A program made the translations under genes and the position numbers. A DNA stretch of 64,000 bases, from the NCBI RefSeq assembly GCF_963921235.1, contig NC_086097.1, positions 89,840,001-89,904,000 of the forward strand. The letters are read 5' to 3'. Numbering within the stretch: the first letter of the stretch is position 1; every line of letters begins with the position of its first letter. Positions 2,870 to 42,615 of the stretch are shown here, piece by piece. The notes beneath the pieces were generated by a model. The model searched no databases and was not told the origin of the DNA. It saw only the letters and a list, made by a program, of their open reading frames with translations. The DNA is from Mobula hypostoma (lineage: Eukaryota).

Positions 2870-3180
2870 AGGAGCCTGCCTAGCCTCAAGCCTGAAGACT
2901 CCAGCCTCCTGCCTAGCCTCAAGCCTGAAGACTCCAGCCTCCTGCCAAGCCTCACCTCAAGTCTCTAGCCTCAAGCCTGAAGACTCCAGCCTCCAGCTTC
3001 CTGCCAAGTCCTGCCTCAAGCCTGAAGACTCCAGCTTCCTGCCAAGCCTTGACTCTAGCCTCAAGCCTGAAGATTCCAGCCTCTGCCTCTAAGCCTCAAG
3101 CCTGAAGATTCCAGCCTCTGCCTCTAAGCCTCAAGCCTGAAGACTCCAGCCTCATCCTGCCTGCCTGCCAAGCCTCATCC
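2870..3180 (+). repeat. Minisatellite inside the LTR (GCCTCAAGCCTGAAGACTCCAGCCT unit)
   Basis: About 8 visible copies. Confidence 0.9.
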
Positions 3181-9400: not shown

Positions 9401-11220
9401 AGAAAATAAAAACATTAAAAGCAGAACAAAAATCAGAAAACTTTCACACAAGTAGGAGGAAACAATAGAAGATTGGCAGAGAGAGGTTGATGAGCAAATC
9501 CAAGACAAAAATTAAGCAGAATTGCTGAAAATAACATACATGGAACAAGCATAATAAAACCCACAACACTTTGAACCACAACAGGACAGCATGTGCCAAC
9601 AAAACCCACAGACACCTAGCAGTTTTAACACTTAGGAGGCTGCAGCTGCATATCTGCACTGTGGTTCTAAGCTGTTTTGATGATCCACTACCGAGCGTTT
9701 GTGCAGAACCGGATTCCTGGGGGATTTCCGGATCTGTCCTCGCTTACAGTTAGGTGTCTCTAAAAGTAGTCACTGTTACCCTCCCTCACCCACACCAGCC
9801 TCAGGGAGGCTGACTCTTAATTTCCTCAGATGCACCAACCTCACTCAGGACTGTAGCATACCAAAGATTCAAATCTATCCAGAAAGGAAGCTGACTTAAC
9901 CAGGATAAAATCATATTTGAAGAGATTTCTTACATTCTGTTCCTCTGTTAAATAATGTTTTATAGTTTTGTTTTGTTATAATTTCCTCTTTTGTGCTCGC
10001 CAGTGTTCTCCCCGATGAGAAAACAAAACAGGATGGGTCAGGGCTAAACACCGTTACAAGCCGGTCTGCTGAACTGTCCACCAGATTTTCACACTGAATC
10101 TACATCTGCTCACACACAACATTGCCTGGACAGCATCACCATCGGTGCAACCTTAGATCATGAGGTACAAACCAGTGACCAAGAAGTTACGGTCTGTTTT
10201 CTTCTTTTGGGCAGTCCTTGGAGGTAGAGGATGAGCTGATTTGCTTCTTATTCAGAGATGAGGGACCTGTCAGCTCTGCATCAGGTGGAGAGGTTGGGTG
10301 GGTTCTCCATCTCCTGCTTCTGGAGGACTCAAGTTTCCTGATGCCTCTTCATTGGACTGTCCAGGGCCAGGGATTCCCAACTGGTAACTGGGTCTAGGTA
10401 CAGGGAAAAACTTAATTTTGCATGCCATCCCTACCGATCATTTCATGCTTCTTTGCTCACTATCTTGAATGTTGCTCTCTATTTAGAATGTGCTTTTTTA
10501 TATGTTTTGCACCTTGGCCCCAGAGGAACATTGTCACATTCGGCTGTATCTATGTATGGTTGAATGATAATTGAACTTGATTTGATATGAGAAAGTGTGG
10601 TGCAAGGAGAAAAATAAGGTGCAAAAAATAACAAGATTTACTGGAGAATGCAGCCTAACAGGTGTCTGTAACAAGAACTCAAGAGACAGTCCTATTGAAC
10701 AAGAGGTCCATTCAATAATCATTTAACAGCAGAATAGAAGCTGTGCTTGAGCCTGGTGCCACATACTTTCAGGATTTTGTATCTTCTGCCTGATGGAACA
10801 AGCAACCACAACCTTGGACTCAACTTCACCGGGACCAAAGAACTTGCTGTGGATTTCAGGAAGGGGAAGCCCAAAGAGCACACATCAACCCTGATTGAGT
10901 GGTGAGTGGTGGAAAAGGTCACAGAGTCATAGTACATTTCAGCATGGAAACAGGCCTTTTGGCCCATCTAGTCTGTGCCAAATCACTAATCTGCCTGGTC
11001 CCATCAACATGTACTCAGACCATAGCCCTCTGTACCTCTCACATCCATGTACCTATTCAAATATCTCTTAAACGTTGAAATCCACCTCACATCCACTACT
11101 CACTCATTCTCACCACCCTCTGAGTGAAGAAGATCCCCCTCATGTTGCTCTTAAATACTTTGCCTTTCACCCTTAACCAATGACTTCTAGTTGTAGTCCC
11201 ATGCAACCTCAGTGGAAAAA

Positions 11221-11433
11221 CACACACAAAATGCTGGAGGAACTCAGCTGGCAGGCAGCATCTATGGAAAAAAGTAGAGTCAACGTTTCGGGCCGAGACC
11301 ATTCAGCAGGACTTTCCTGCCCAAAACGTCGACTGTACCCTTTTCCACAGATGCCGCCTGGCCTGCTGAGTTGCCCCAGCATTTTATGTGTGTTGCTTGG
11401 ATTTCCAGCATCTGCAGACTTGCTCTTATTTCC
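11221..11433. mobile_element. Short head-to-head (inverted) PLE terminal derivative
   Basis: Inverted arms about 11221-11295 and 11318-11395; flanked by CAGTGGAAAAA (11210-11220) and CAGTGGTAAAA (11434-11444) inside CR1. Confidence 0.8.
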
Positions 11434-12695: not shown

Positions 12696-14158
12696 AACAG
12701 TCAACATTTCAGTCCAAGACCCTTCTTCAGGACTGGAAAAAAAGACAAGAAATCTAAACAAGAAGGTGGGGGAGGGGAGGAAGAAGTACAAGGTGGTAGG
12801 TGATGGGTGAAAGTGGGAGGGTGGGAGTGGTGAAGTAAAGAGCTGGGCAGTTGATTGGTGAAAGAAATAAAGGGCTGGAGATGGGTGAATCTGTAAGGAG
12901 AAGGTAGAAGACCATGGAAGAAAGGAAAAGGGGAGGAGCACCAGTGGGATGTGATGGACAAGTCAGGAGGTAAGCTGAGAGAGGGAAGTTTGAGAAATCA
13001 ATGTTCATGCCATCAGTTTGGAGGCTACCTAGATGGAATATAAGGTGTTGCTCCTCCAGCCTGAGTGTGGCCTCATCACGGTAGTAGAGGAGGCCATGGA
13101 CTAACATGTCAGAATGGGAATGGGAAGTAGAATTTAAATGGGTAGCCACCGGGAGATCCCGCTTTTTCTGGTAGTTGGAGTGTTGGTACTCGGTGAAGTG
13201 GTCTCCCAATCTAAGTCAGGACTCATCAATATACAGGAGGCCACACTGGGAGCTCCGGATATAGTAGATGACCCCAATAGATTCACAGGTGAAGTGTCAC
13301 TTCACCTGGAAGACTATTTGGGGCCCTGAATGGTAGTGAGAGAGGAGGTTTGGGGGCAGGTATGGTACTTGTTCCGCTTGCAAGGATAAGTACCAGGAGG
13401 GAGATCAGTGGGGAGGGACGAATGAACAAGGGAGTCCCATAGGGAGCGATCCCTGTGGAAGCTGAAAGTAGGGTGAGGGAAAGATATGCTTGGTGGTGGG
13501 ATCCCATTGGAGATTGCAGAAGTTATGGAGAATTATGCGCTGAATGCAGAGGCTAACGGTGTGGTAGGTGAGGACAAGAGGAACCCTCTATCCCTTGTGG
13601 GGTGGTGGGAGGATGGGGTGAGGCAGACATGCGCGAAATGGAAGAGATGCGGGTGAGGACAGCATTGATGGTGGAGGAAGGAAAGCCCTTTCTTTGAAGA
13701 AGGAGGACAATTCATTAGTTCTGGAATGAAAAAGCCTCCTCCTGAGAGCAGATGCAACAGAGACAGAGGAATTGAGAGAAAAGGGGTTGGCATTTTTACA
13801 AGTAACAGGGTGAGAAAAGGTATAGTCCAGGTAGCTGTGGGAACCAGTGGGTTTATAAAAGATAGCAGTAGATAAACTGTCTCCAGAGATTAAGACAAAG
13901 AGATCGAGAAAGGGGAGGGTGGTGTCAGAAATGGACCAGCTAAATTTGAGGGCGGGGGGGAAGTTGGGGGCAAAGTTGATAAAACCAACGAGCTCTGCAT
14001 GGGTGTAGGAAGCAGCACTAATACAGTCGTCGGTGTAGCAGAGGAAAATTTGGGGAGTGATACCGGCATATGCTTGGAACGTAGACTGTTCCACGAAGCC
14101 GACAAAGAGGCCGGCATAGCTGGGACCCAAGCAAATGCCTACGGATACACCTTTGGTT
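12696..14158 (-). mobile_element. Degraded Penelope-like element (RT C-terminus, GIY-YIG, tail)
   Basis: ORFs 13588-14130 (MGPSYAGLFVGFVEQ...YTDDC) and 12754-13209 (LEEQHLIFHLGSLQTDGMNIDFSNF) are homologous to 16595-18643. Confidence 0.92.
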
Positions 14159-15904
14159 TGATAATCCCATTAATGTGGTCATACCTTTTTTATTCATCAG
14201 TTCTACCCACAAAGCCTCACTAGATGAGCTCTCTAGTGTGTCCTGACAGAGTACTACTGTGACGTTTTCCCTGACTGGTAATGCCAGCCCTTCCCTCTCT
14301 GTCACGTCTGAAACAATGGAACCCCAGAACACTGAGCTGCCGTTCCTAACCCTCCTGCAACCAAGTCTCATTACTGGCTACAATATCATAATTCCATTTG
14401 CTGATCCATGCCCTAAGCTCATCCGCCTACCTTACAATACCTTTTGTATTGAAATAGACACAGCTCAAAACATTAGTCCCACCATGTTCAACCTTTTCAT
14501 TCCTGACCTTGTATGTAGACTTGACAAAGTCTTTCTCCACAACCTCTCCACTATCTGTTCTGGAACTCCGGTTTCCACACCCCTGCAACTCTAGTATAAA
14601 CCCTGACCACCCCCCCCCCCCATTCAGCACTAGCAAAATTTCCTGCTAGGATGTTAGTTCCCATTCCACCACCCCACTGCCCCCCCCCCCCAGTTCAGGT
14701 GCAAAATGTCCATTCTGTGCAGGTCCCTGGAAGAGAGCCCAATGATTCAAAACTTTGAAGTACTACCCCCGCACCAAATCTTTAGCCATGTGTTAAACTG
14801 TATGATCTTCCTATTTCTGGCTTCACTAGCATGCGGCCCAAGTAGCAATCCTGAGATCACAACCCTGGAGGTTCCGTCCTCTAACTTAGCACCTAACTCC
14901 TTGAACTCACTTTGTAGGACCTTGTTACCCATTCAACCCACACCATTGGTCCTGACGTAGACCGCATTTGGTTGCTCACCCTCCCACCTAAGAATGCTGT
15001 GGATTCGAACCGTGATGTCCCTGACCCTACCAGCCGGGAATCATGTTCTTATCCACAGAACCTCCTTTTAGTTCCCCTAACCAATAAATCCCCTTTCACT
15101 ACAGCTCACCTCAGATCCCTCCTTCCCTTCTGAGTCACAGAGCCAGACTCAGTGCCAGAGGCCTGACTGCTGATGCTTTCCTCTGCCAGGTCATCCCACT
15201 CCAATGGTATCAAGAGTGGCATACCTGCTATTATGGGAAATGGCCACAGGGGTAGTCTGCACTGGCTGTCTATCCCCTTTCCCCCTCCTGACAATCATGT
15301 AGTTACCTGTGTCCAACACCATGGGTGTAACTACCTCCCTGTATATCCTGTCAATCAATCCCTCAGCCTCCCGAATGATTTGGAGCTCATCCAGTTCCCG
15401 CTCCGTCTCCTCAACATGGTCTGGTAAAAGCTGCCTCTGAATGCACTTTTTGCAGGCATAGTCATCAGGGATACTGGAGATCTCCTTGCCTTCCCACATC
15501 CCACAAAGGGAACATTCCAGTATCCTGTCTGGCATCCCCACTGCTCTAAATGTGCAATAAGAAAGAAAGAAGAAATAATCAGAAAACGTTTACCTACGGC
15601 CTATGGCTCTCTTCACTGAAGCCTCAATGAGCCAAAGACTCAACACCCCACTCCAACACTGATCCACTCATGCAATGACCACTCCCAAAATGGCCATTAA
15701 CTTCTTTTGGTTGGCCTTTGCCAAGTGCCTAATTATGCACAATCCAATACCTCCTCAGAAACTCTGGTGTGCAAAATGTATCAACTGCCCACACCTTTTT
15801 TAAAAACGCTCTCTCTCGACATAATCCCATGACTTCTCGGGATTGTGCCATATAAAATGCGCTAACTGCCCCCGTTCACTCCTTAGTAAGCAGCTTCAAG
15901 TTTT

Positions 15905-16195: not shown

Positions 16196-16608
16196 TACAC
16201 TCAGTGGCTACTTTATTAGGTATACCTATATACCTGCTTGTTAATGCAAATCAGCCAAAGACATGGCAGAAACTCAATGCATAAAAACGTGTGGACGTGG
16301 TTAAAAGGTTCAGTTGTTGTTCAAATTAAACAACAGAATAGGGAAGAAATGTGATCTAAAGTGACTTTGACTGTTGGTGAACGCAGCAGGCCAGGCAGCA
16401 TCTATAGGAAGAGGTACAGTAGAAGATGTACCTCTTCCTATAGATGCTGCCTGGCCTGCTGTGTTCACCAGCAATTTTTGTGTGTGTTGCTTAAATTTCC
16501 AGCATCTGCAGATTTCCTCATGTCTGCGTTTGACTGTTGGTGCCTGAAGGGGTGGTTTGACTATCTCAGAAACTGTTGATCTCCTAGGATTTTCATGCAC
16601 AACAGTGA
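16196..16608 (+). mobile_element. Tc1-like transposon 5' fragment
   Basis: TACACTCAGTGGCTACTTTATTAGG terminus; degenerate HTH region (GKKCDL...SETVDLLGFSCTTV); homologous to 42163-42610. Confidence 0.8.
16380..16528. mobile_element. Short PLE hairpin derivative with 14-bp duplication
   Basis: TTTGACTGTTGGTG at 16366-16379 and 16529-16542; 44-bp inverted arms 16375-16418 and 16427-16470. Confidence 0.88.
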
Positions 16609-16656
16609 ACTTATCTGTGATTGTGGTTTTCTTTATACTAACATCTTGTTTTTCAG

Positions 16657-18643
16657 TCTTCAACCCTCCTCTTCTTCATGGACACCCCGCTCTGGTCTTC
16701 TGCCTGCTCTGGATCTCTTTATTGCTAACTGCCGACGGGACATCAACCGTCTGGACTTCACCGCACCTTGTCCCCATTCCAACCTCACTCCTTCGGAACG
16801 CTCTGCTCTCCACTCCCTCCGCACTAATCCTAACCTTATTATTAAACCCGCCGATAAGGGGGGTGCTGTTGTAGTCTGGCGTACTGACCTCTACCTTGCC
16901 GAGGCACAGCGACAACTCACGGATACCTCCTCTTATTTACCCCTCGATCGTGACCCCACTAAGGAGCACCAGGCCATTGTCTCCCACACCATCACTGACT
17001 TTATCCGCTCAGGGGATCTCCCATCCACTGCTACCAACCTTATAGTTCCCACACCCCACACTTCCCGTTTCTACCTCCTACCCAAGATCCACAAACCTCC
17101 CTGTCCTGGCCGACCTATTGTCTCAGCTTGCTCCTGCCCCACCGAACTCATTTCTGCATACCTCGACACTGTTTTATCACCCCTTGTTCAATCCCTTCCG
17201 ACCTATGTTCGTGACACTTCTCACGCTCTTAAACTTTTCGATGATTTTAAGTTCCCTGGCCCCCACCGCTTTATTTTCACCGTGGATGTCCAGTCCTTAT
17301 ATACTTCCATCCCCCATCAGGAAGGTCTCAAAGCTCTACGCTTCTTTTTGGATTCCAGACCTAATCAGTTCCCCTCTACCACCACTCTGCTCCGTCTAGC
17401 GGAATTAGTCCTTACTCTTAATAATTTCTCCTTTGGCTCCTCCCACTTCCTCCAAACTAAAGGTGTAGCTATGGGCACCCGTATGAGTCCTAGCTATGCC
17501 TGCCTTTTTGTTGGATTTGTGGAACAATCTATGTTCCGTGCCTATTCTGGTATCTGTCCCCCACTTTTCCTTCGCTACATCGACGACTGCATTGGCGCTG
17601 CTTCCTGCACGCATGCAGAACTCGTTGACTTTATTAACTTTGCCTCCAACTTTCACCCTGCCCTCAAGTTTACCTGGTCCATTTCCGACACCTACCTCCC
17701 CTTTCTAGATCTTTCTGTCTCTGTCTCTGGAGACAGCTTATCCACTGATGTCTACTATAAGCCTACTGACTCTCACAGCTACCTGGACTATTCCTCTTCT
17801 CACCCTGTCTCTTGCAAAAACACCATCTCCTTCTCGCAATTCCTCCGTCTCCGCCGCATCTGCTCTCAGGATGAGGCTTTTCATTCTAGGACGAGGGAGA
17901 TGTCTTCCTTTTTTAAAGAAAGGGGCTTCCCTTCCTCCACTATCAACTCTGCTCTTAAACGCATCTCCCCCATTTCACGTACATCTGCTCTCACTCCATC
18001 CTCCCACCACCCCACTAGGAATAGGGTTCCCCTGGTCCTCACCTACCACCCCACCAGCCTCCGGGTCCAGCATATTATTCTTCGTAACTTCCGCCACCTC
18101 CAACGGGATCCCACCACTAAGCACATCTTTCCCTCCCCGCCTCTCTCTGCATTCCGCAGGGATCGCTCCCTACACAACTCCCTTGTCCATTCGTCCCCCC
18201 CATCCCTCCCCACTGATCTCCCTCCTGGCACTTATCCATGTAAGCGGAACAAGTGCTACACATGCCCTTACACTTCCTCCCTTACCACCATTCAGGGCCC
18301 CAAACAGTCTTTCCAGGTGAGGCATCACTTCACCTGTGAGTCGACTGGGGTGATATACTGCGTCCGATGCTCCCGATGTGGCCTTTTATATATTGTCGAG
18401 ACCCGACGCAGACTGGGAGATCGTTTTGCTGAACATCCACGCTCTGTCCGCCAGAGAAAGCAGGATCTCCCAGTGGCCACACACTTTAATTCCACATCCC
18501 ATTCCCATTCTGACATGTCTATCCATGGCCTCCTCCACTGTAAAGATGAAGCCACACTCAGGTTGGAGGAACAACACCTTATATTCCGTCTGGGTAGCCT
18601 CCAACCTGATGGCATGAACATCGACTTCTCTAACTTCCGCTAA
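16657..18643 (+). CDS. PLE polyprotein, 5'-truncated: reverse transcriptase, Cys linker, GIY-YIG endonuclease
   Basis: DKGGAVVVW, LLPKIHK, PGRPIVS, DVQSLYTSIP, GVAMG, RYIDD, FLD, CKRNKCYTC, GVIYCVRCSRCGLLYIVET (YIG changed to YIV); the ATG at 16595 lies outside the TSD. Confidence 0.92.
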
Positions 18644-18937
18644 GGCCCCACCTCCCCCTCGTACCCCATCCGTTACTCATTTTTATGCACACATTCTTTC
18701 TCTCACTCTCCTTTTTCTCCCTCTGTCCCTCTGAATATACCTCTTGCCCATCCTCTGGGTCCCCCCCCCCCCGTCTTTCTTCCCGGACCTCCTGTCCCAT
18801 GATCCTCTCGTATCCCCTTTTGCCTATCACCTGTCCAGCTCTTGGCTCTATCCCTCCCCCTCCTGTCTTCTCCTATCATTTTGGATCTCCCCTTCCCCCT
18901 CCAACTTTCAAATTCCTTACTCACTCTTCCTTCAGTT

Positions 18938-18973
18938 AGTCCTGACGAAGGGTCTCGGCCTGAAACGTCGACT
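18938..18973 (+). ncRNA. Minimal type I hammerhead ribozyme in the PLE tail
   Basis: AGUC-CUGACGA-A-GGGU(CUCG)GCCU-GAAAC-GUC^-GACU: stem I AGUC/GACU, intact core, palindromic ACGU stem III. Confidence 0.85.
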
Positions 18974-19149
18974 GCACCTCTTCCTACAGATGCTGCTTGG
19001 CCTGCTGCGTTCACCAGCAACTTTGATGTATGTTGCTTGAATTTCCAGCATCTGCAGCATTCCTGTTGTTCTTGTTTTTCAGGTTTTTTTTCCTTCACTT
19101 CAAATAATTTATGTCCATTTTATGATCTGTGTGTTACCTGAATCTCTGT

Positions 19150-25343: not shown

Positions 25344-27823
25344 TAGAAACATAGAAACATAGAAAATAGGTGCAGGAGTAGGCCATTCGGCCCTTCGAGC
25401 CTGCACCGCCATTTATTATGATCATGGCTGATCATCCAACTCAGAACCCAGCCTTCCCTCCATACCCCCTGACCCCTGTAGCCACAAGGGCCATATCTAA
25501 CTTCCTTTTAAACATAGCTAATGAACTGGCCTCAACAGTTTGCTGTGGCAGAGAATTCCACAGATTCACCACTCTCTGTGTGAAGAAGTTTTTCCTAACC
25601 TCGGTCCTAAAAGGCTTCCCCTCTATCTTCAAACTGTGACCCCTCGTTCTAGACCTCCCCAACATCGGGAACAATCTTCCCGCATCTAGCCTGTCCAATC
25701 CCTTTAGGATCTTATACGTTTCAATCAGATCCCCCCTCAATCTTCTAAATTCCAACGAGTACAAGCCCAGTTCATCCAGTCTTTCTTCATATGAAAGACC
25801 TGCCATCCCAGGAATCAATCTGGTGAACCTTCTTTGTACTCCCTCTATGGCAAAGATGTCTTTCCTCAGATTAGGGGACCAAAACTGCACACAATACTCC
25901 AGGTGTGGTCTCACCAAGGCCTTGTACAACTGCAGTAGTACCTCCCTGCTCCTGTACTCGAATCCTCTCGCTATAAATGCCAGCATACCGTTCGCCTTTT
26001 TCACCGCCTGCTGTACCTGCATGCCCACTTTCAATGACTGGTGTATAATGACACCCAGGTCTCGTTGCACCTCCCCTTTTCCTAATCGGCCACCATTCAG
26101 ATAATAATCTGTTTTCCTATTTTTGCCACCAAAGTGGATAACTTCACATTTATCCACATTAAATTGCATCTGCCATGAGTTTGCCCACTCACCCAACCTA
26201 TCCAAGTCACCCTGCATCCTCTTAGCATCCTCCTCACTGCTAACACTGCCACCCAGCTTCGTGTCATCTGCAAACTTGGAGATGCTGCATTTAATTCCCT
26301 CATCCAAGTCATTAATATATATTGTAAACAACTGGGGTCCCAGCACTGAGCCTTGCGGTACCCCACTAGTCACCGCCTGCCATTCTGAAAAGGTCCCGTT
26401 TATTCCCACTCTTTGCTTCCTGTCTGCTAACCAATTCTCCACCCACACCAATACCTTATCCCCAATACCGTGTGCTTTAAGTTTGCACACTAATCTCGTG
26501 TGTGGGACCTTGTCAAAAGCCTTTTGAAAATCCAAATATACCACATCCACTGGTTCTCCCCTATCCACTCTACTAGTTACATCCTCAAAAAATTCTATGA
26601 GATTCGTCAGACATGATTTTCCTTTCACAAATCCATGCTGACTTTGTCCGATCATTTCACCGCTTTCCAAATGTGCTGTTATCACATACTTGATAACTGA
26701 CTCCAGCAGTTTCCCCACCACCGACGTTAGGCTAACCGGCCTATAATTCCCCGGTTTCTCTCTCCCTCCTTTTTTAAAAAGTGGAGTTACATTAGCCACC
26801 CTCCAATCCTCAGGAACTAGTCCAGAATCTAACGAGTTTTGAAAAATTATCACTAATGCATCCACTATTTCTTGGGCCACTTCCTTAAGCACTCTGGGAT
26901 GCAGACCATCTGGCCCTGGGGATTTATCTGCCTTCAATCCCTTCAATTTACCTAACACCACTTCCCTACTAACATGTATTTCGCTCAGTTCCTCCATCTC
27001 ACTGGACCCTCTGTCCCTTACTATTTCTGGAAGATTATTTATGTCCTCCTTAGTGAAGACAGAACCAAAGTAATTATTCAATTGGTCTGCCATGTCCTTG
27101 CTCCCCATAATCAATTCACCTGTTTCTGTTTGCAGGGGACCTACATTTGTCTTTATCAGTCTTTTCCTTTTTACATATCTATAAAAGCTTTTACAGTCCG
27201 TTTTTATGTTCTCTGCCAGTTTTCTCTCATAATCTTTTTTCCCCTTCCTAATTAAGCCCTTTGTCCTCCTCTGCTGAACTCTGAATTCCTCCCAGTCCTC
27301 AGGTGAGCCACTTTCTCTGGCTAATTTGTATGCTACTTCTTTGGAATTGATACTATCCCTAGTTTCTCTTGTCAGCCACGGGTGCACTACCTTCCTTGAT
27401 TTATTCTTTTGCCAAACTGGGATGAACAATTGTTGTAGTTCATCCATGCAACCTTTAAATGCCTGCCATTGCATATCCACCGTCAATCCTTGAAGTGTCA
27501 TTTGCCAGTCTATCTTAGCTAATTCACGTCTCATACCTTCAAAGTTACCCCTCTTTAAGTTCAGAACCTTTGTTTCTGAATTAACTACGTCACTCTCCAT
27601 GTTAATGAAGAATTCCACCATATTATGGTCACTCTTACCCAAGGGGCCTCTCACGACAAGATCGCTGATTAACCCTTCCTCATTGCTCAAAACCCAGTCC
27701 AGAATAGCCTGCTCTCTAGTCGGTTCCTCGACATGTTGGTTCAAAAAACCATCCCGCATACATTCCAAGAAATCCTCTTCCTCAGCACCTTTACCAATTT
27801 GGTTCACCCAGTCTACATGTAGA
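25344..27823 (-). mobile_element. Young 5'-truncated CR1 LINE
   Basis: Terminal (TTTCTATG)n repeat at 25344-25367; open 788-aa ORF2. Confidence 0.96.
25441..27822 (-). CDS. CR1 ORF2, 5'-truncated: C-terminal part of APE endonuclease plus reverse transcriptase
   Basis: ILDWVL...GKSDHNMV, NYRPVSLTS, YLDFQKAFDKVPH, GVPQGSVLGP, KFADDTKL, YCVQFWSP; no stops. Confidence 0.95.
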   Translation of the reverse strand, partial: LHVDWVNQIGKGAEEEDFLECMRDGFLNQHVEEPTREQAILDWVLSNEEGLISDLVVRGPLGKSDHNMVEFFINMESDVVNSETKVLNLKRGNFEGMRRELAKIDWQMTLQGLTVDMQWQAFKGCMDELQQLFIPVWQKNKSRKVVHPWLTRETRDSINSKEVAYKLARESGSPEDWEEFRVQQRRTKGLIRKGKKDYERKLAENIKTDCKSFYRYVKRKRLIKTNVGPLQTETGELIMGSKDMADQLNNYFGSVFTKEDINNLPEIVRDRGSSEMEELSEIHVSREVVLGKLKGLKADKSPGPDGLHPRVLKEVAQEIVDALVIIFQNSLDSGLVPEDWRVANVTPLFKKGGREKPGNYRPVSLTSVVGKLLESVIKYVITAHLESGEMIGQSQHGFVKGKSCLTNLIEFFEDVTSRVDRGEPVDVVYLDFQKAFDKVPHTRLVCKLKAHGIGDKVLVWVENWLADRKQRVGINGTFSEWQAVTSGVPQGSVLGPQLFTIYINDLDEGIKCSISKFADDTKLGGSVSSEEDAKRMQGDLDRLGEWANSWQMQFNVDKCEVIHFGGKNRKTDYYLNGGRLGKGEVQRDLGVIIHQSLKVGMQVQQAVKKANGMLAFIARGFEYRSREVLLQLYKALVRPHLEYCVQFWSPNLRKDIFAIEGVQRRFTRLIPGMAGLSYEERLDELGLYSLEFRRLRGDLIETYKILKGLDRLDAGRLFPMLGRSRTRGHSLKIEGKPFRTEVRKNFFTQRVVNLWNSLPQQTVEASSLAMFKRKLDMALVATGVRGYGGKAGF

Positions 27824-29282
27824 AGGATCTGGATGAATTCTCAATGAAAGTTATAAGGATGGGGAAAGACTGGGAATAATTGGAGAGACCTTTCGAGGAG
27901 GAAACATTTCGCTGTGCTGCATCATTTCATGAGGCCAAACTCTTTAGCGAGAAATGGATGGAATATTCAACATCGTAAAAGGCCATGATGAAAGGTCAGA
28001 GTTCGAGCTTCTCACTATGCTGATGCCACAGTTATAACCTTCCATTCCTTTCCCTGTGTGTTCATCTTGTTTTCCCTTAAATACCTTCAAGAAACTTTCT
28101 TGAATGACTCCATGAAGCATTAGTTTTGCTACTCTGTGGATGAAGGAGATTCTCCTGAAATTGTTGATTTTCCAATGACTTTCTGGTATTGAAGGTCTTT
28201 CAGCTGGATTGACCACTTGTACTGAAGAGAAATTAGATAGAAGCTGATAACAGTAAGAGAGGAGATGAAAGAAAATGGCTTACAGAATTATAGAAAACTC
28301 TAAGATGTTTCACAAATATGTAAAGTGAGAAGTAATGTAATATGTAAAGTGTAAAGTACAAGTTGGGCCAGTTAGAGACCAAGTTATAATCTGGGTGTGG
28401 AAGCATATGAAGGGTTTCGAGTGAATACTTTGCATCAATCGCCATTAAAGAGGGGATTGATGCAGACATTTATATTAGAATATTATGCTCCTAGGGTCTG
28501 TTAATATTGCTGTCCACTATGGCAATTGACAAGGATAGAATGACCAACAAAATCTCCTTTATTGAAGGCAGTTAGTACTTATCCCACGAGTGTGACTGCT
28601 ACAACATGGGATCAAAAGTTATACCCCATGTTACACATCCTTCTTAAAGGTACACACAGACATTCATATAAAATACATTAGTAAAATGAGTAACATACCC
28701 ATTCAAATGACCAGCGATCTATAATACAGGTTGGAACTCTCTGCTCTGGCAACTCCTGTGGTCCAACATGTAGTACTAATTAACTAACCCTAACTAAGCT
28801 CTAATCAAGATAAAAATTACAAATGCCTGTAAAAATCAGTACCTAATTTATCGACCAGTGAATGTTTGGTGATCTCAGTTGACAGCAATCTTAGCCAGCA
28901 GTGATTTGGAGTTATTGAAACTTTGGGTTACTGCAAGTTCTTGGGAATAGAGCAATCACTAGCTCATGGAGTGTCCTGTACATCTGAAATGTCCCTCTGC
29001 TCAGAAGTAGCCGATCAGGTCAGCTTCTGTAGTGCAGCATTTTCTGCCGTGTGGCACCAGTCACGTCCCAAAGTCAACAGGCGAGTGTTTCAACCTTTGT
29101 GTCTTTAATAATGATTTATACATCGGTAATTATGATCCAGGGTGAATAGTTACATTTAAAGGACAGTAACCAACTGTAAATTAAATGAACCTTCAGACTT
29201 TCCAAACTTGTGATATCCCCTTATCTATAAAGGTCATAGGCTGGTTTTACTAAACGTGGCAGATTGGCAAAGGCACATATTA

Positions 29283-30943
29283 CAGTGCCTATAAAAAGTA
29301 TTCATCCCCCTCCACCCTGGAAGTTTTCATGTTTTATTGTTTTACAACATTGAATCACAGTGCATTTAGTTTGTTTTTTTTACACTTTTCATCAGAAAAG
29401 ACTCTTACAGGTCGAAGTGAAAACACATTTCTACAAACTGGTCTAAATTTATTACAGCAACACACACCAAAGTTGCTGGTGAACGCAGCAGGCCAAGCAG
29501 CATCTCCAGGAAGAGGCGCAGTCGACGCTCCAGGCCGAGACCCTTCGTCAGGACTAACTAACTAAATTTATTACAATGATTAAACACAAAATAATTGATT
29601 GCATAATTATTCACCTTCAAGTCAGTATTTAGTAGATGCACCTTTGGCAGCAATTATAGTCTTGAGTCTGTGTGGATAGATCTCTGCCAGCTTTGCACAT
29701 CTGGATACTACAATTTTTCCTCATTCCTCTTTACAAAACTGCTCAAGCTCTGTCAGATTACGTGGAGACTGAGAGTGAACAGCCCTTTTCAAGTCCAACC
29801 ACAAATTTTCAATTGGATTGAGGTCTGGACTCTAACTTGGCCACTCCAGGACATTAATTTTGTTGTTTTTAAGCCATTCCTGTGTAGCTTTGGCTTTATG
29901 CTTGGGGTCATTATCTTGCTGGAAAACAAATCTTCTCGCAAGTTACAGTTCTCTTGCAGACTGCATCAGGTTTTCCTCCAGGATTTCCCTGTATTTTGCT
30001 GTATTCATTTTACCCTCTGCCTTCACAAGCCTTCCAGGGCCTGCTGCAGTGAAGCATCCCCACAGCATGATATAACCACCACCATGCTTCATGGTAGGGA
30101 TGGTGTGTTTTCGATGATGCCATACATAGCTTACACCAAACATAGTGCTTAGTCTGATAGCCAAAAAGCTCAATTTTGACTTCATCAGACCACAGAACCT
30201 TCTTCCAGCTGACTTCAGAGTTTCCCACATGCCTTCTGGCAAACTCTAGCCAAGATTTCATGTGAGTGTTTTGCAGCTGTGGCTTTCTCTTTGCCACTCT
30301 CCCATAAAGTTGCCACTGGCATAGCACCCAGGCAACAGTAGTACGCAGAGTCTCTCCCATCTCAGCCACTGAATCTTGTAACTCCTTCGGAGTTGTCACA
30401 GGACTCTTAGTGGCCTCCCTCACTAGTCCCCTTCTTGCACGGTCACTCAGTTTTTGAGGTCGGCCTGCCCTAGGCAGATTTACAACTGTGCCATATTCTT
30501 TCCATTTCTTGATGATTGACTTAACTGTACTCCAAGGGATATTTAGAGACTTGAAAATTTCCTGTATCTATCTCTTGAACTGTGCTTTTCAATGACCTTT
30601 TTGCGGAGATGCCTGGAGTGTTCTTTTGTCATCATGGTGTAGCTTTTTGCCAGGATATTAACTCACCAGTAGCTGGACCTTCCAGATACAGGTGTATTTT
30701 TACCACAATCAGTTGCAACACCTGGACTGCACAAAGGTCTCCAAAAACATATCTCCATTTAAAGAATTATGTAACTTCTAAAATCAATTGGCAGCACCAC
30801 CGATAATTTGGTGTATCATATTAAAGGGTGTGTTAATTATGTAATCAATTATTTTGTGTTTTATATTTGTAATTAATTTAGATTACTTTGTAGAGATTTG
30901 TGTTCACTTTGACACGCAAGAGTCTTTCGCGTTGATCAATGTC
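29283..30943 (-). mobile_element. Decayed Tc1/mariner (DD34E-type) transposon
   Basis: TA|CAGTGCCTATAAAAAGTATTCA end; inner inverted repeat 29385-29615 vs 30826-30940; transposase pieces [44 protein letters not shown]; frameshifted, outer right end missing. Confidence 0.92.
29457..29561 (-). mobile_element. 105-bp PLE tail insertion (hammerhead region) inside the Tc1 TIR
   Basis: 14-bp TSD CTAAATTTATTACA at 29443-29456 and 29562-29575; aligns to the reverse complement of 18934-19036. Confidence 0.92.
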
Positions 30944-40450: not shown

Positions 40451-40677
40451 CTCTGTCCATTGGCAAAAAGCAAGCTGAGTGATGGGTATGTGTGAGAGGG
40501 AATAAGTTGGATAGGTTGAGGGATGTGGGGAGTGGCAATATAGGGGCCAGCATGCACTTAATGGGATGAATGTCCTGCTTCTGTGGTTTATTAACTATAA
40601 GCCCACTTTCTGAATGATTTTGAAAATAGCTATAAAAGTTTGCTGGGTATATGCAGTCTGATCACTAGACGTTTTTT

Positions 40678-41575
40678 TGTTTATGACACCATTCTCCTTA
40701 AATCTAGAAACTGTTCTGCAGGAGATCAGCAGTTTCTGAGATACCTAAACCACCCCATCTGGCACCAACAATCATTCCACAATCAAAGTCACTTAGATCA
40801 CATTACCTCCTCATCCTAATGTCTGGTCTGAACAACAACTGAACCTTTTGATCATGTCTGCATGCTTTCATGCGTTGAGTTGCTGCCTCATGATTGGCTA
40901 ATTGGATATTTGCATTAACACCAGCGCCTTTACTTCCTGAGGAAGCTGAAGAAATTTGGCCTGTCCCCTAAAACCCTCACTAATTTTTATAGATGCACTG
41001 TAGAAAGCATTCTTCTAGGGCGCATCACAACCTGGTATGGAAGTTGTCCTGTCCAAGACTGGAAGAAGCTGCAGAAGATCGTGAACACGGCGCAGCACAT
41101 CACACAAACCAATCTTCCATCCATGGACTCACCTTACACCGCACGCTGTCGGGGCAGCGCTGCCAGGATAGTCAAGGACACGACCCACCCAGCCAACACA
41201 CTTTTCTTCCCTCTTCCCTCCAGGAGAAGGCTCAGGAGCTTGAAGACTCGTACGGCCAGATTTGGGAACAGCTTCTTTCCAACTGTGATAAGACTGCTGA
41301 ATGGATCCTGACCCGGATCTGGGCCGTACCCTCCAAATATCCGGACCTGCCTCTCGGTTTTTTTGCACTACCTTACTTTCCCTTTTCTATTTTCTATTTA
41401 TGATTTATAATTTAAATTTTTAATATTGACTATCAATTTTGTACTCCAGGGAGAATGAAGTACAGAAGCAAATATCGCTGGGATGATTGTATGCTCTAGT
41501 ATCAATTGTTTGGTAACAACAAAGTATAAAGTATAAACAAGCAGAAGCACAAGTGTACCTAATAAAGTGGCCATT
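40678..41575 (-). mobile_element. Tc1-like 5' fragment interrupted by a Rex1 insertion
   Basis: Reverse complement of 42168-42439; terminus CCTAATAAAGTGGCCA at about 41560-41575. Confidence 0.85.
40921..41535 (+). mobile_element. Young Rex1-like LINE 3' fragment
   Basis: QRLYFLRKLKKFGL...THPANTLFFPLPSRRRLRSLKTRTARFGNSFFP; (TATAAAG)n tail. Confidence 0.85.
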
Positions 41576-42162: not shown

Positions 42163-42615
42163 ACTTAGTGGCCACTTTATTAGGTACACCTGTGCTTCTG
42201 GTTGTTAATGTCCAATCAGCCAATCATGTGGGAGCAACTCAATGCATGAAAGCATGCAGACATGATCAAAAGGTTCAGTTGTTGTTCAGACCAGACATTA
42301 GGATGAGGAGGTAATGTGATCTAAGTGACTTTGATTGTGGAATGATTGTTGGTGCCAGATGGGGTGGTTTGGGTATCTCAGAAACTGCTGATCTCCTGCA
42401 GAACAGTTTCTAGATTTAAGGAGAATGGCGTGATAAACAACAGAACAACCAGGGAGTGGCGGTTCTGTGGGTGAAAATGCTTTGTTAATGAGAGAGGTCA
42501 GAGGAGAATGGCCAGACTGGTTCAAGCTGACAGGAAGGTGACAGTAACTCAAATAACAACGTATCACCAGAGTGGTGTGTAGAAGAGCAACTCTGAAAGC
42601 ACAATACTCGGATGG
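42163..42615 (+). mobile_element. Tc1-like transposon 5' fragment
   Basis: CACTTAGTGGCCACTTTATTAGG terminus; DLSDFDCGMIVGAR...ISETADLL...ERGQRRMARLVQADRK. Confidence 0.85.

Follow-up and report, generated by a model that had tools for sequence, protein, structure and literature searches.

Adenosine-to-guanosine changes fixed in DNA by reverse transcription have been described in avian retroviruses. In Rous-associated virus as well as in avian leukosis virus (Felder 1994; Hajjar & Linial 1995, both as covered in the consulted part of the review PMC12925331), A-to-G hypermutation reached nearly 50% of the As and was tied to an inverted-repeat region. In retrotransposons edited by APOBEC, strand-biased clusters of one mismatch type were judged against the subfamily consensus (Knisbacher & Levanon, PMC4866542); the sections of that survey of LTR elements used here report G>A clusters, with other types, C>T aside, very rare. 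Hyper-edited RNA carries dense A>G clusters that dominate other mismatches, with a depletion of G on the 5' side of edited As and an enrichment of G on the 3' side (Porath et al. 2014, PMC4365171, in excerpt). According to excerpts of other reports, de novo Alu inserts in cell culture had no editing in 52 kb (PMC3415434), L1 RNA in cells was unedited by ADAR1 or ADAR2 (PMC5224506, PMC8677026), a mouse provirus had an A>G excess lacking the ADAR context (PMC12548423), and editing was named as one possible cause of retrozyme heterogeneity (PMC7229834). In the full texts searched, which include few subscription papers, we found no account of genomic PLE copies that had been edited, and the available parts of PMC2873906 and of a bioRxiv preprint (10.64898/2026.07.22.740005) held nothing bearing on edited copies in DNA. 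The precedent for A-to-G changes fixed by reverse transcription appears to lie with retroviruses, with none found for PLEs.

We compared a short PLE insertion with these systems. The insertion lies in a 64,000-nucleotide stretch of Mobula hypostoma DNA (the window), and was originally predicted to be a copy of A-to-I-edited RNA. Alignment and BLAST within the window place a 105-nt, 5'-truncated PLE pseudo-LTR/tail at 29457-29561 on the minus strand. Its reference is a young PLE on the plus strand (16580-19070), with a reverse transcriptase reading frame at 16580-18643 and a 3' pseudo-LTR at 18934-19036 that holds a minimal hammerhead whose GAAA box is intact. The young element's sense frame is on the plus strand, so the sense strand of the insert is minus. 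The reading frame has 687 codons and a match to RVT_1 (E=3.5e-6) that falls under the curated Pfam cut-off; Pfam gave no GIY-YIG match in this frame, in which a GIY-YIG-like motif is visible by eye. Positions 29457-29559 align with 19036-18934 of the young copy at 96 of 103 positions (93.2%), and homology at this level (93%) to a pseudo-LTR behind a reverse transcriptase element identifies the insert as PLE-derived. Two extra letters (29560-29561) are present at the 5' junction, and the young copy has a different letter at one of them. The 3' extension found after the young copy (19037-19070) is missing from the insert.

The insertion is flanked by a perfect 14-bp target-site duplication, as had been predicted: 29443-29456, which is AT-rich Tc1 sequence, is identical to 29562-29575. 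The host is a decayed Tc1/mariner transposon on the minus strand (29280-30567; Pfam HTH_Tnp_Tc3_2, E=7e-13), the right-hand limit of which is the end of the transposase reading frame remnant (30010-30567) and not a mapped element end. On its left side, multi-copy depth in assembled contigs starts in the 29276-29294 bin. In three of the four contig runs compared (X5, X9, X15), contigs join 29442 directly to 29562 and skip 119 letters (29443-29561), with 12-14 letters that fit either side. Since these contigs skip exactly the insert and one repeat, they confirm the empty state of Tc1; they probably come from paralogous Tc1 copies. An AT-rich target with an exact 14-bp duplication is what a truncated PLE insertion leaves. 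The parts of Frangieh et al. 2024 (PMC11167929) available to us describe similar PLE insertions in an AT-rich target with ATT, in which the hammerhead site is uncleaved and the 30-40 nt tail extension, absent here, is optional; that system is a Poseidon-clade element studied in vitro, and edited templates go unmentioned in those parts. On the sense strand, one 4-mer occurs three times in tandem across the junction of the duplication and the insert (29552-29565), which suggests microhomology and slippage during second-strand priming. The Tc1 insertion point (29200-29304) is common to organism B, where a contig has 2 differences in 105 nt, and the orthologous locus could therefore date the PLE insertion.

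Over the 103 nt there are seven differences from the young copy, at the positions originally predicted. Six are A>G on the sense strand (plus-strand T>C at 29463, 29467, 29507, 29517, 29528 and 29530) and one is sense C>G (plus-strand G>C at 29506). Thus, 6 of the 19 As were changed and none of the 29 Ts, with no T>C on the sense strand. There was also no sense G>A, the direction that APOBEC editing of DNA leaves, and we rejected APOBEC as the cause. The cluster resembles the APOBEC-edited retrotransposons of PMC4866542, as far as described there, in being a strand-biased group of one type in an element copy; it differs in consisting of A>G, for which the editing would act on RNA. It resembles the retroviral cases of PMC12925331, to the extent that the review was available, in its clustered sense A>G, which reverse transcription would have fixed, and in a possible association with inverted repeats. 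Unlike them, it is found in a single copy of a germline non-LTR PLE fragment, involves 6 of 19 As and lacks the ADAR motif.

Older family copies in the window were used to decide which changes are derived. As predicted for 29463, they indicate that G is probably ancestral there, since all five older copies carry it; at the equivalent of 29467, three of five do. The other four sites also behave as predicted: the older copies keep A at 29517, five of six keep A at 29507 (one has T), and all five copies, old and young, that cover 29528 and 29530 keep A at both. Because older copies carry G at 29463 and 29467, only 29507, 29517, 29528 and 29530 are derived relative to old and young copies alike. 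On these comparisons, derived status seems secure for four sites, likely for 29467 and doubtful for 29463, and the Gs at 29463 and 29467 may have been inherited from older copies. A>G still dominates on the transcript strand when these two sites are left out (4 of 5 changes, compared to 6 of 7). Against the young copy, none of the nine other family matches in the window has a comparable A>G spectrum.

The older copies raise the possibility that a minor source lineage gained the Gs stepwise, through ordinary mutation or because old and young subfamilies recombined, and was then copied faithfully without editing. The Gs at 29463 and 29467 of the older copies favor such a lineage, as does polymorphism at 29506; the As kept at 29528 and 29530 speak against it, and stepwise drift would have to yield four of four or four of five changes of one type (P ~1e-3 to 1e-2). 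Scans for the family tail's DNA pattern recovered no loci in metagenome, genome or viral contigs, so we turned to translated copies of the family. Predicted ray proteins contain the tail's antisense frame as exonized sequence, in which four of the changed sites alter a residue. With the insert's own peptide as the query, 13 proteins from Mobula hypostoma and M. birostris were found among 52 candidates. A search of a representative protein library gave four matches and added one further relative; P0017 from this search is unrelated and was left out. The resulting set has 14 peptides from 13 genes (P0008 and P0010 are from the same gene, as are P0002 and P0015). A near-length protein search gave no match.

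None of the 14 peptides has the residues of the insert (P4, P17, A24, P25) at the readable sites 29467, 29507, 29528 and 29530. Residue 4 (29467) is S in all 13 peptides that cover it, P0014 lacking residues 1-4; residue 17 (29507) is I, V or L in all 14 (I in 5, V in 6 and L in 3, which reflects the polymorphism at 29506); residue 24 is V in all 14; and residue 25 is S in 13, with L in the remaining peptide. A search in a second frame found one match, a peptide with A-type letters at 29463, 29467, 29517 and 29530, and the A state at 29463 and 29517 is read from that one peptide together with the window copies. The Gs are therefore not the family consensus. A subfamily consensus already carrying them had been named in advance as the observation that would overturn the editing claim, and by this peptide proxy the claim was not overturned. 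The absence of G-type peptides from a search that was biased toward them also counts against a minor lineage; zero of 13 genes puts a 95% upper bound of ~21% on the share of G-bearing copies, which leaves room for a possible lineage below ~20%. There are only three private residue changes over ~460 residues of the family peptides, which marks the family as young and makes the insert an outlier. The young copy's own tail peptide, in the antisense frame, is identical to the V-type Mobula peptides, making it a valid consensus-type reference.

The exonized frame itself spans 29458-29562 on the plus strand, where the antisense tail is open for ~35 codons, and it is present in isoforms predicted for at least 12 named ray genes that are unrelated to one another (P0002-P0016). 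These include Tim8A, mago nashi, AK8 and an arsenite methyltransferase, often entered through the same upstream residues, a pattern that suggests Alu-like antisense exonization.

Public contig depths were compared for 4 of 24 runs, all consisting of assembled contigs. Summed depth on the tail reached millions in organisms A and B, compared to ~6 for unique DNA; in organism C, most of the tail had a much lower depth. The sole variant listed inside the insert is at 29518, with 762k depth units of G in X1 and 75k in X5; for this G subtype, organism A has ~10-fold the depth of organism B at similar total tail depth. Together with the near absence of the young tail from organism C, this points to a burst that was very recent and lineage-specific. 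No variants were listed at the six A>G sites. We rejected this as proof of a high-copy subfamily with the Gs: all 24 listed variants have at least 31 contig letters on each side, which suggests a filter that short tail contigs would rarely pass, and the missing entries are therefore unusable. We also simulated depth profiles with mismatch masks, under aligner settings that had to be guessed. When contigs were 31 nt long and seeds at least 12, a model in which the Gs are shared had an error of 0.27-0.63, compared to 0.74-2.24 otherwise; short seeds, or contigs of 36-41 nt, made the models nearly equal. Depth at 29518 fits a high-copy type with C29517, or an insert-like one, better in most parameter sets. 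These depths are compatible with an abundant type in organism A that shares C29517 or more, and to that extent they weigh against the editing reading, but the fit depends on the model. We consider a minor source lineage unlikely. This and the other probabilities that we attach to readings are judgements, not computed values.

The flanking DNA provides a control for mutations after insertion. In the 3' flank of Tc1, the filtered table lists eight locus-specific changes on the plus strand: four C>T, one G>A, two T>C and one A>G. Only the segment made by reverse transcription carries the bias, given that T>C makes up two of eight flank changes and C>T or G>A five of eight. Because the T>C excess ends at the edges of the insert, the bias entered with the template.

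Ordinary point mutations after insertion could by chance all have been A>G, the copy then being picked out in a large scan. There are only four to six events, no ADAR motif accompanies them, and the insert is a single copy chosen from a scan of some 250,000 windows. The probability that at least six of seven changes are A>G is 2.4e-5 if each is A>G with p=0.125, and 1.3e-3 with p=0.25; for four of five changes the values are 1.1e-3 and 1.6e-2. Per copy, the probability of five or more A>G accompanied by no more than one other change is 1e-6 at 1% divergence and 2e-5 at 2%; for four or more A>G, with other changes limited in the same way, it is 3e-4 to 1e-3 at 2-4% divergence. A chance cluster is thus unlikely in the sampled windows of one genome but not negligible across ~250,000 windows. 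In addition to the first of these per-copy values, the youth of the family, the intact state of both copies of the target-site duplication (28 nt) and the lack of C>T and G>A in the insert, which dominate in the flank, weigh against chance, and we regard it as rather unlikely.

Two further alternatives were considered. GC-biased gene conversion, or a mutational bias of the local region, would account for six transitions that are all weak-to-strong. However, all six hit one of the 19 As, and not one of the 29 Ts was changed, a strand asymmetry (P=0.004-0.025) that largely refutes this explanation, and the flanks are AT-biased; we find it highly improbable. An error of the assembly or of its consensus, at a repeat that was collapsed, would be in keeping with the observation that none of the contig pieces listed, most pieces not being shown, bridges a junction of the insert. 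But mis-polishing would pull letters toward the family consensus and not away from it, the unique flank has no differences from an organism-A contig over 92 nt, and the target-site duplication is exact. We consider an error of this kind very unlikely.

The neighbors of the changed As were compared with the ADAR preference. A 5' G precedes two of the six changed As, in agreement with the caveat that came with the original prediction, and 4 of the 13 unchanged As; a 3' G follows none of the six changed As and 5 of the 13 unchanged (P=0.11, low power). There are three UA sites, of which two carry a change (P=0.22). Neither the 5'-G depletion nor the 3'-G enrichment is seen in the insert. The direction, density (6 of 19 As) and confinement of the cluster fit ADAR, whereas the neighbor preference does not. 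It resembles the hyper-edited clusters excerpted from PMC4365171 in the dominance of dense A>G over other mismatches, and differs from those clusters, which are in RNA, in lacking the neighbor motif.

Copying errors without inosine would account for the missing ADAR motif as well as for the confinement and the strand bias. Under this explanation, either the PLE reverse transcriptase would have misincorporated with a bias, or an error-prone polymerase would have placed dG opposite T during second-strand fill-in. Three of the six sites follow A or T, and polymerase eta prefers WA sites. Against such errors, error-prone polymerases usually leave mixed substitutions, and integration is normally accurate, given that the family peptides are near-invariant. 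We view this explanation as quite unlikely.

The best reading of the insert is an A-to-I-edited RNA template fixed by reverse transcription, and our confidence in it lies a little above the midpoint. The cluster of A>G changes is real, non-random and entered at the level of the template, and editing is the leading but unproven cause. The editing claim of the original prediction thus holds in that the Gs are not the consensus and the bias is confined to the insert, and falls short in that the ADAR neighbor signature is absent; the lack of editing in the Alu and L1 studies cited above also weighs against it. A single 105-nt copy with four to six events and no ADAR motif is a lead and not a demonstration.

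Editing inside the tail's own fold was rejected as a sufficient cause. Four of the six sites are unpaired in loops of the predicted fold, so that an antisense partner is needed. The family does supply arrangements of a dsRNA-forming kind, a point in favor of editing, and in the nearest of them, an inverted pair of family tails at 16372-16473 (47-nt arms, 96% complementary, 8-nt spacer), the arm matches only two of the six sites (29507 and 29517). This fold-back pair (16372-16518) lies just upstream of the young reading frame; the first of its arms is able to pair with the 3' tail of the young element as well (90% over 52 nt). The hairpin at 16376-16469 is a mir-641 look-alike in Rfam, with a score (54.5 bits) below the gathering score. 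An older inverted pair of tails is present at 11219-11430, and an older PLE copy on the minus strand, ~80% identical to the young reading frame, at 12984-14160.

Under the editing reading, a family transcript would pair with an antisense tail, supplied by an inverted insertion or an opposite transcript, and ADAR would deaminate about a quarter to a third of its As. Inosines would thus have been present at 4-6 of the 19 adenosines of the RNA template, or of the RNA of a recent low-copy source element. The PLE endonuclease would then nick the AT-rich site in the old Tc1 element, and the reverse transcriptase would copy ~105 nt, reading inosine as G. For this step the product and the 14-bp duplication are observed, and the chemistry is modeled on the excerpted account in PMC11167929. 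The copy would then go to fixation in the germline bearing A>G alone on its sense strand, the pattern seen here, and apart from its edited bases the insert would be an ordinary endonuclease-primed, 5'-truncated PLE tail.

Two of the changes fall in a minimal hammerhead motif at 29520-29555 on the minus strand. The CUGANGA box (CUGACGA, 29551-29545) and stems I and II are present in the insert (29555-29520). The changes at 29530 and 29528 convert the GAAA box to GGAG (29531-29528), as originally described, and the insert hammerhead therefore fails the core definition. We take the changed As to be positions A13 and A15.1, presumably important for the core. The insert continues past the presumed site of cleavage, close to 29524, and an Rfam search of the whole window matched no hammerhead family. 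As in the metazoan PLE pseudo-LTR hammerheads described by Cervera & De la Pena (2014, PMC4209133, in excerpt), there is a CUGANGA box with stem II, positions 15.2-16.2 are palindromic with no helix III, and solo truncated copies occur; unlike those hammerheads, the insert has GGAG in place of the GAAA box. The original prediction that editing inactivated the ribozyme is true of the motif but is probably without consequence. In the portions of these sources that we draw on, no cleavage was seen for a solo minimal hammerhead (PMC4209133), and catalytic mutants of the hammerhead did not reduce insertion in vitro (PMC11167929). Hammerhead cleavage is not needed for insertion in vitro, and loss of the GAAA box is therefore no obstacle. 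Ribozyme loss was probably incidental, and under the editing reading it would be a by-product.

If real, the insert would be a fossil, in DNA laid down by a non-LTR element, of A-to-I editing in the germline, and its route one that was not detected when Alu and L1 were studied in cell culture. With its very many, almost identical copies and its often inverted insertions, such a family could be used to measure the rate at which edited RNA retrotransposes, and could show whether editing reshapes an embedded ribozyme. A broader and more speculative possibility, which we also think unlikely, is that germline ADAR editing of PLE RNA recurs in this hugely amplified ray family. Head-to-head insertions would give dsRNA, and edited tails would be reverse-transcribed to form a class of copies with strand-specific A>G, perhaps whole edited sublineages; editing of the GAAA box may switch off the hammerhead and keep templates uncut. 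Were such recurrence true, part of the variability of PLE hammerheads would be explained without RNA-to-RNA replication.

Several other features were observed in the window. An uninterrupted reverse transcriptase reading frame of 799 codons occupies 25441-27840 on the minus strand, which we take to be a CR1/L2-like LINE. Inverted repeats of 249 nt at 40662-40910 and 42207-42455 (94% complementary, 1296 nt apart) are probably, from their arrangement, a young DNA transposon. Tandem repeat arrays are located at 1563-1867 (unit of ~54 nt), 2548-2829 (57-67 nt) and 2882-3165 (14-52 nt).
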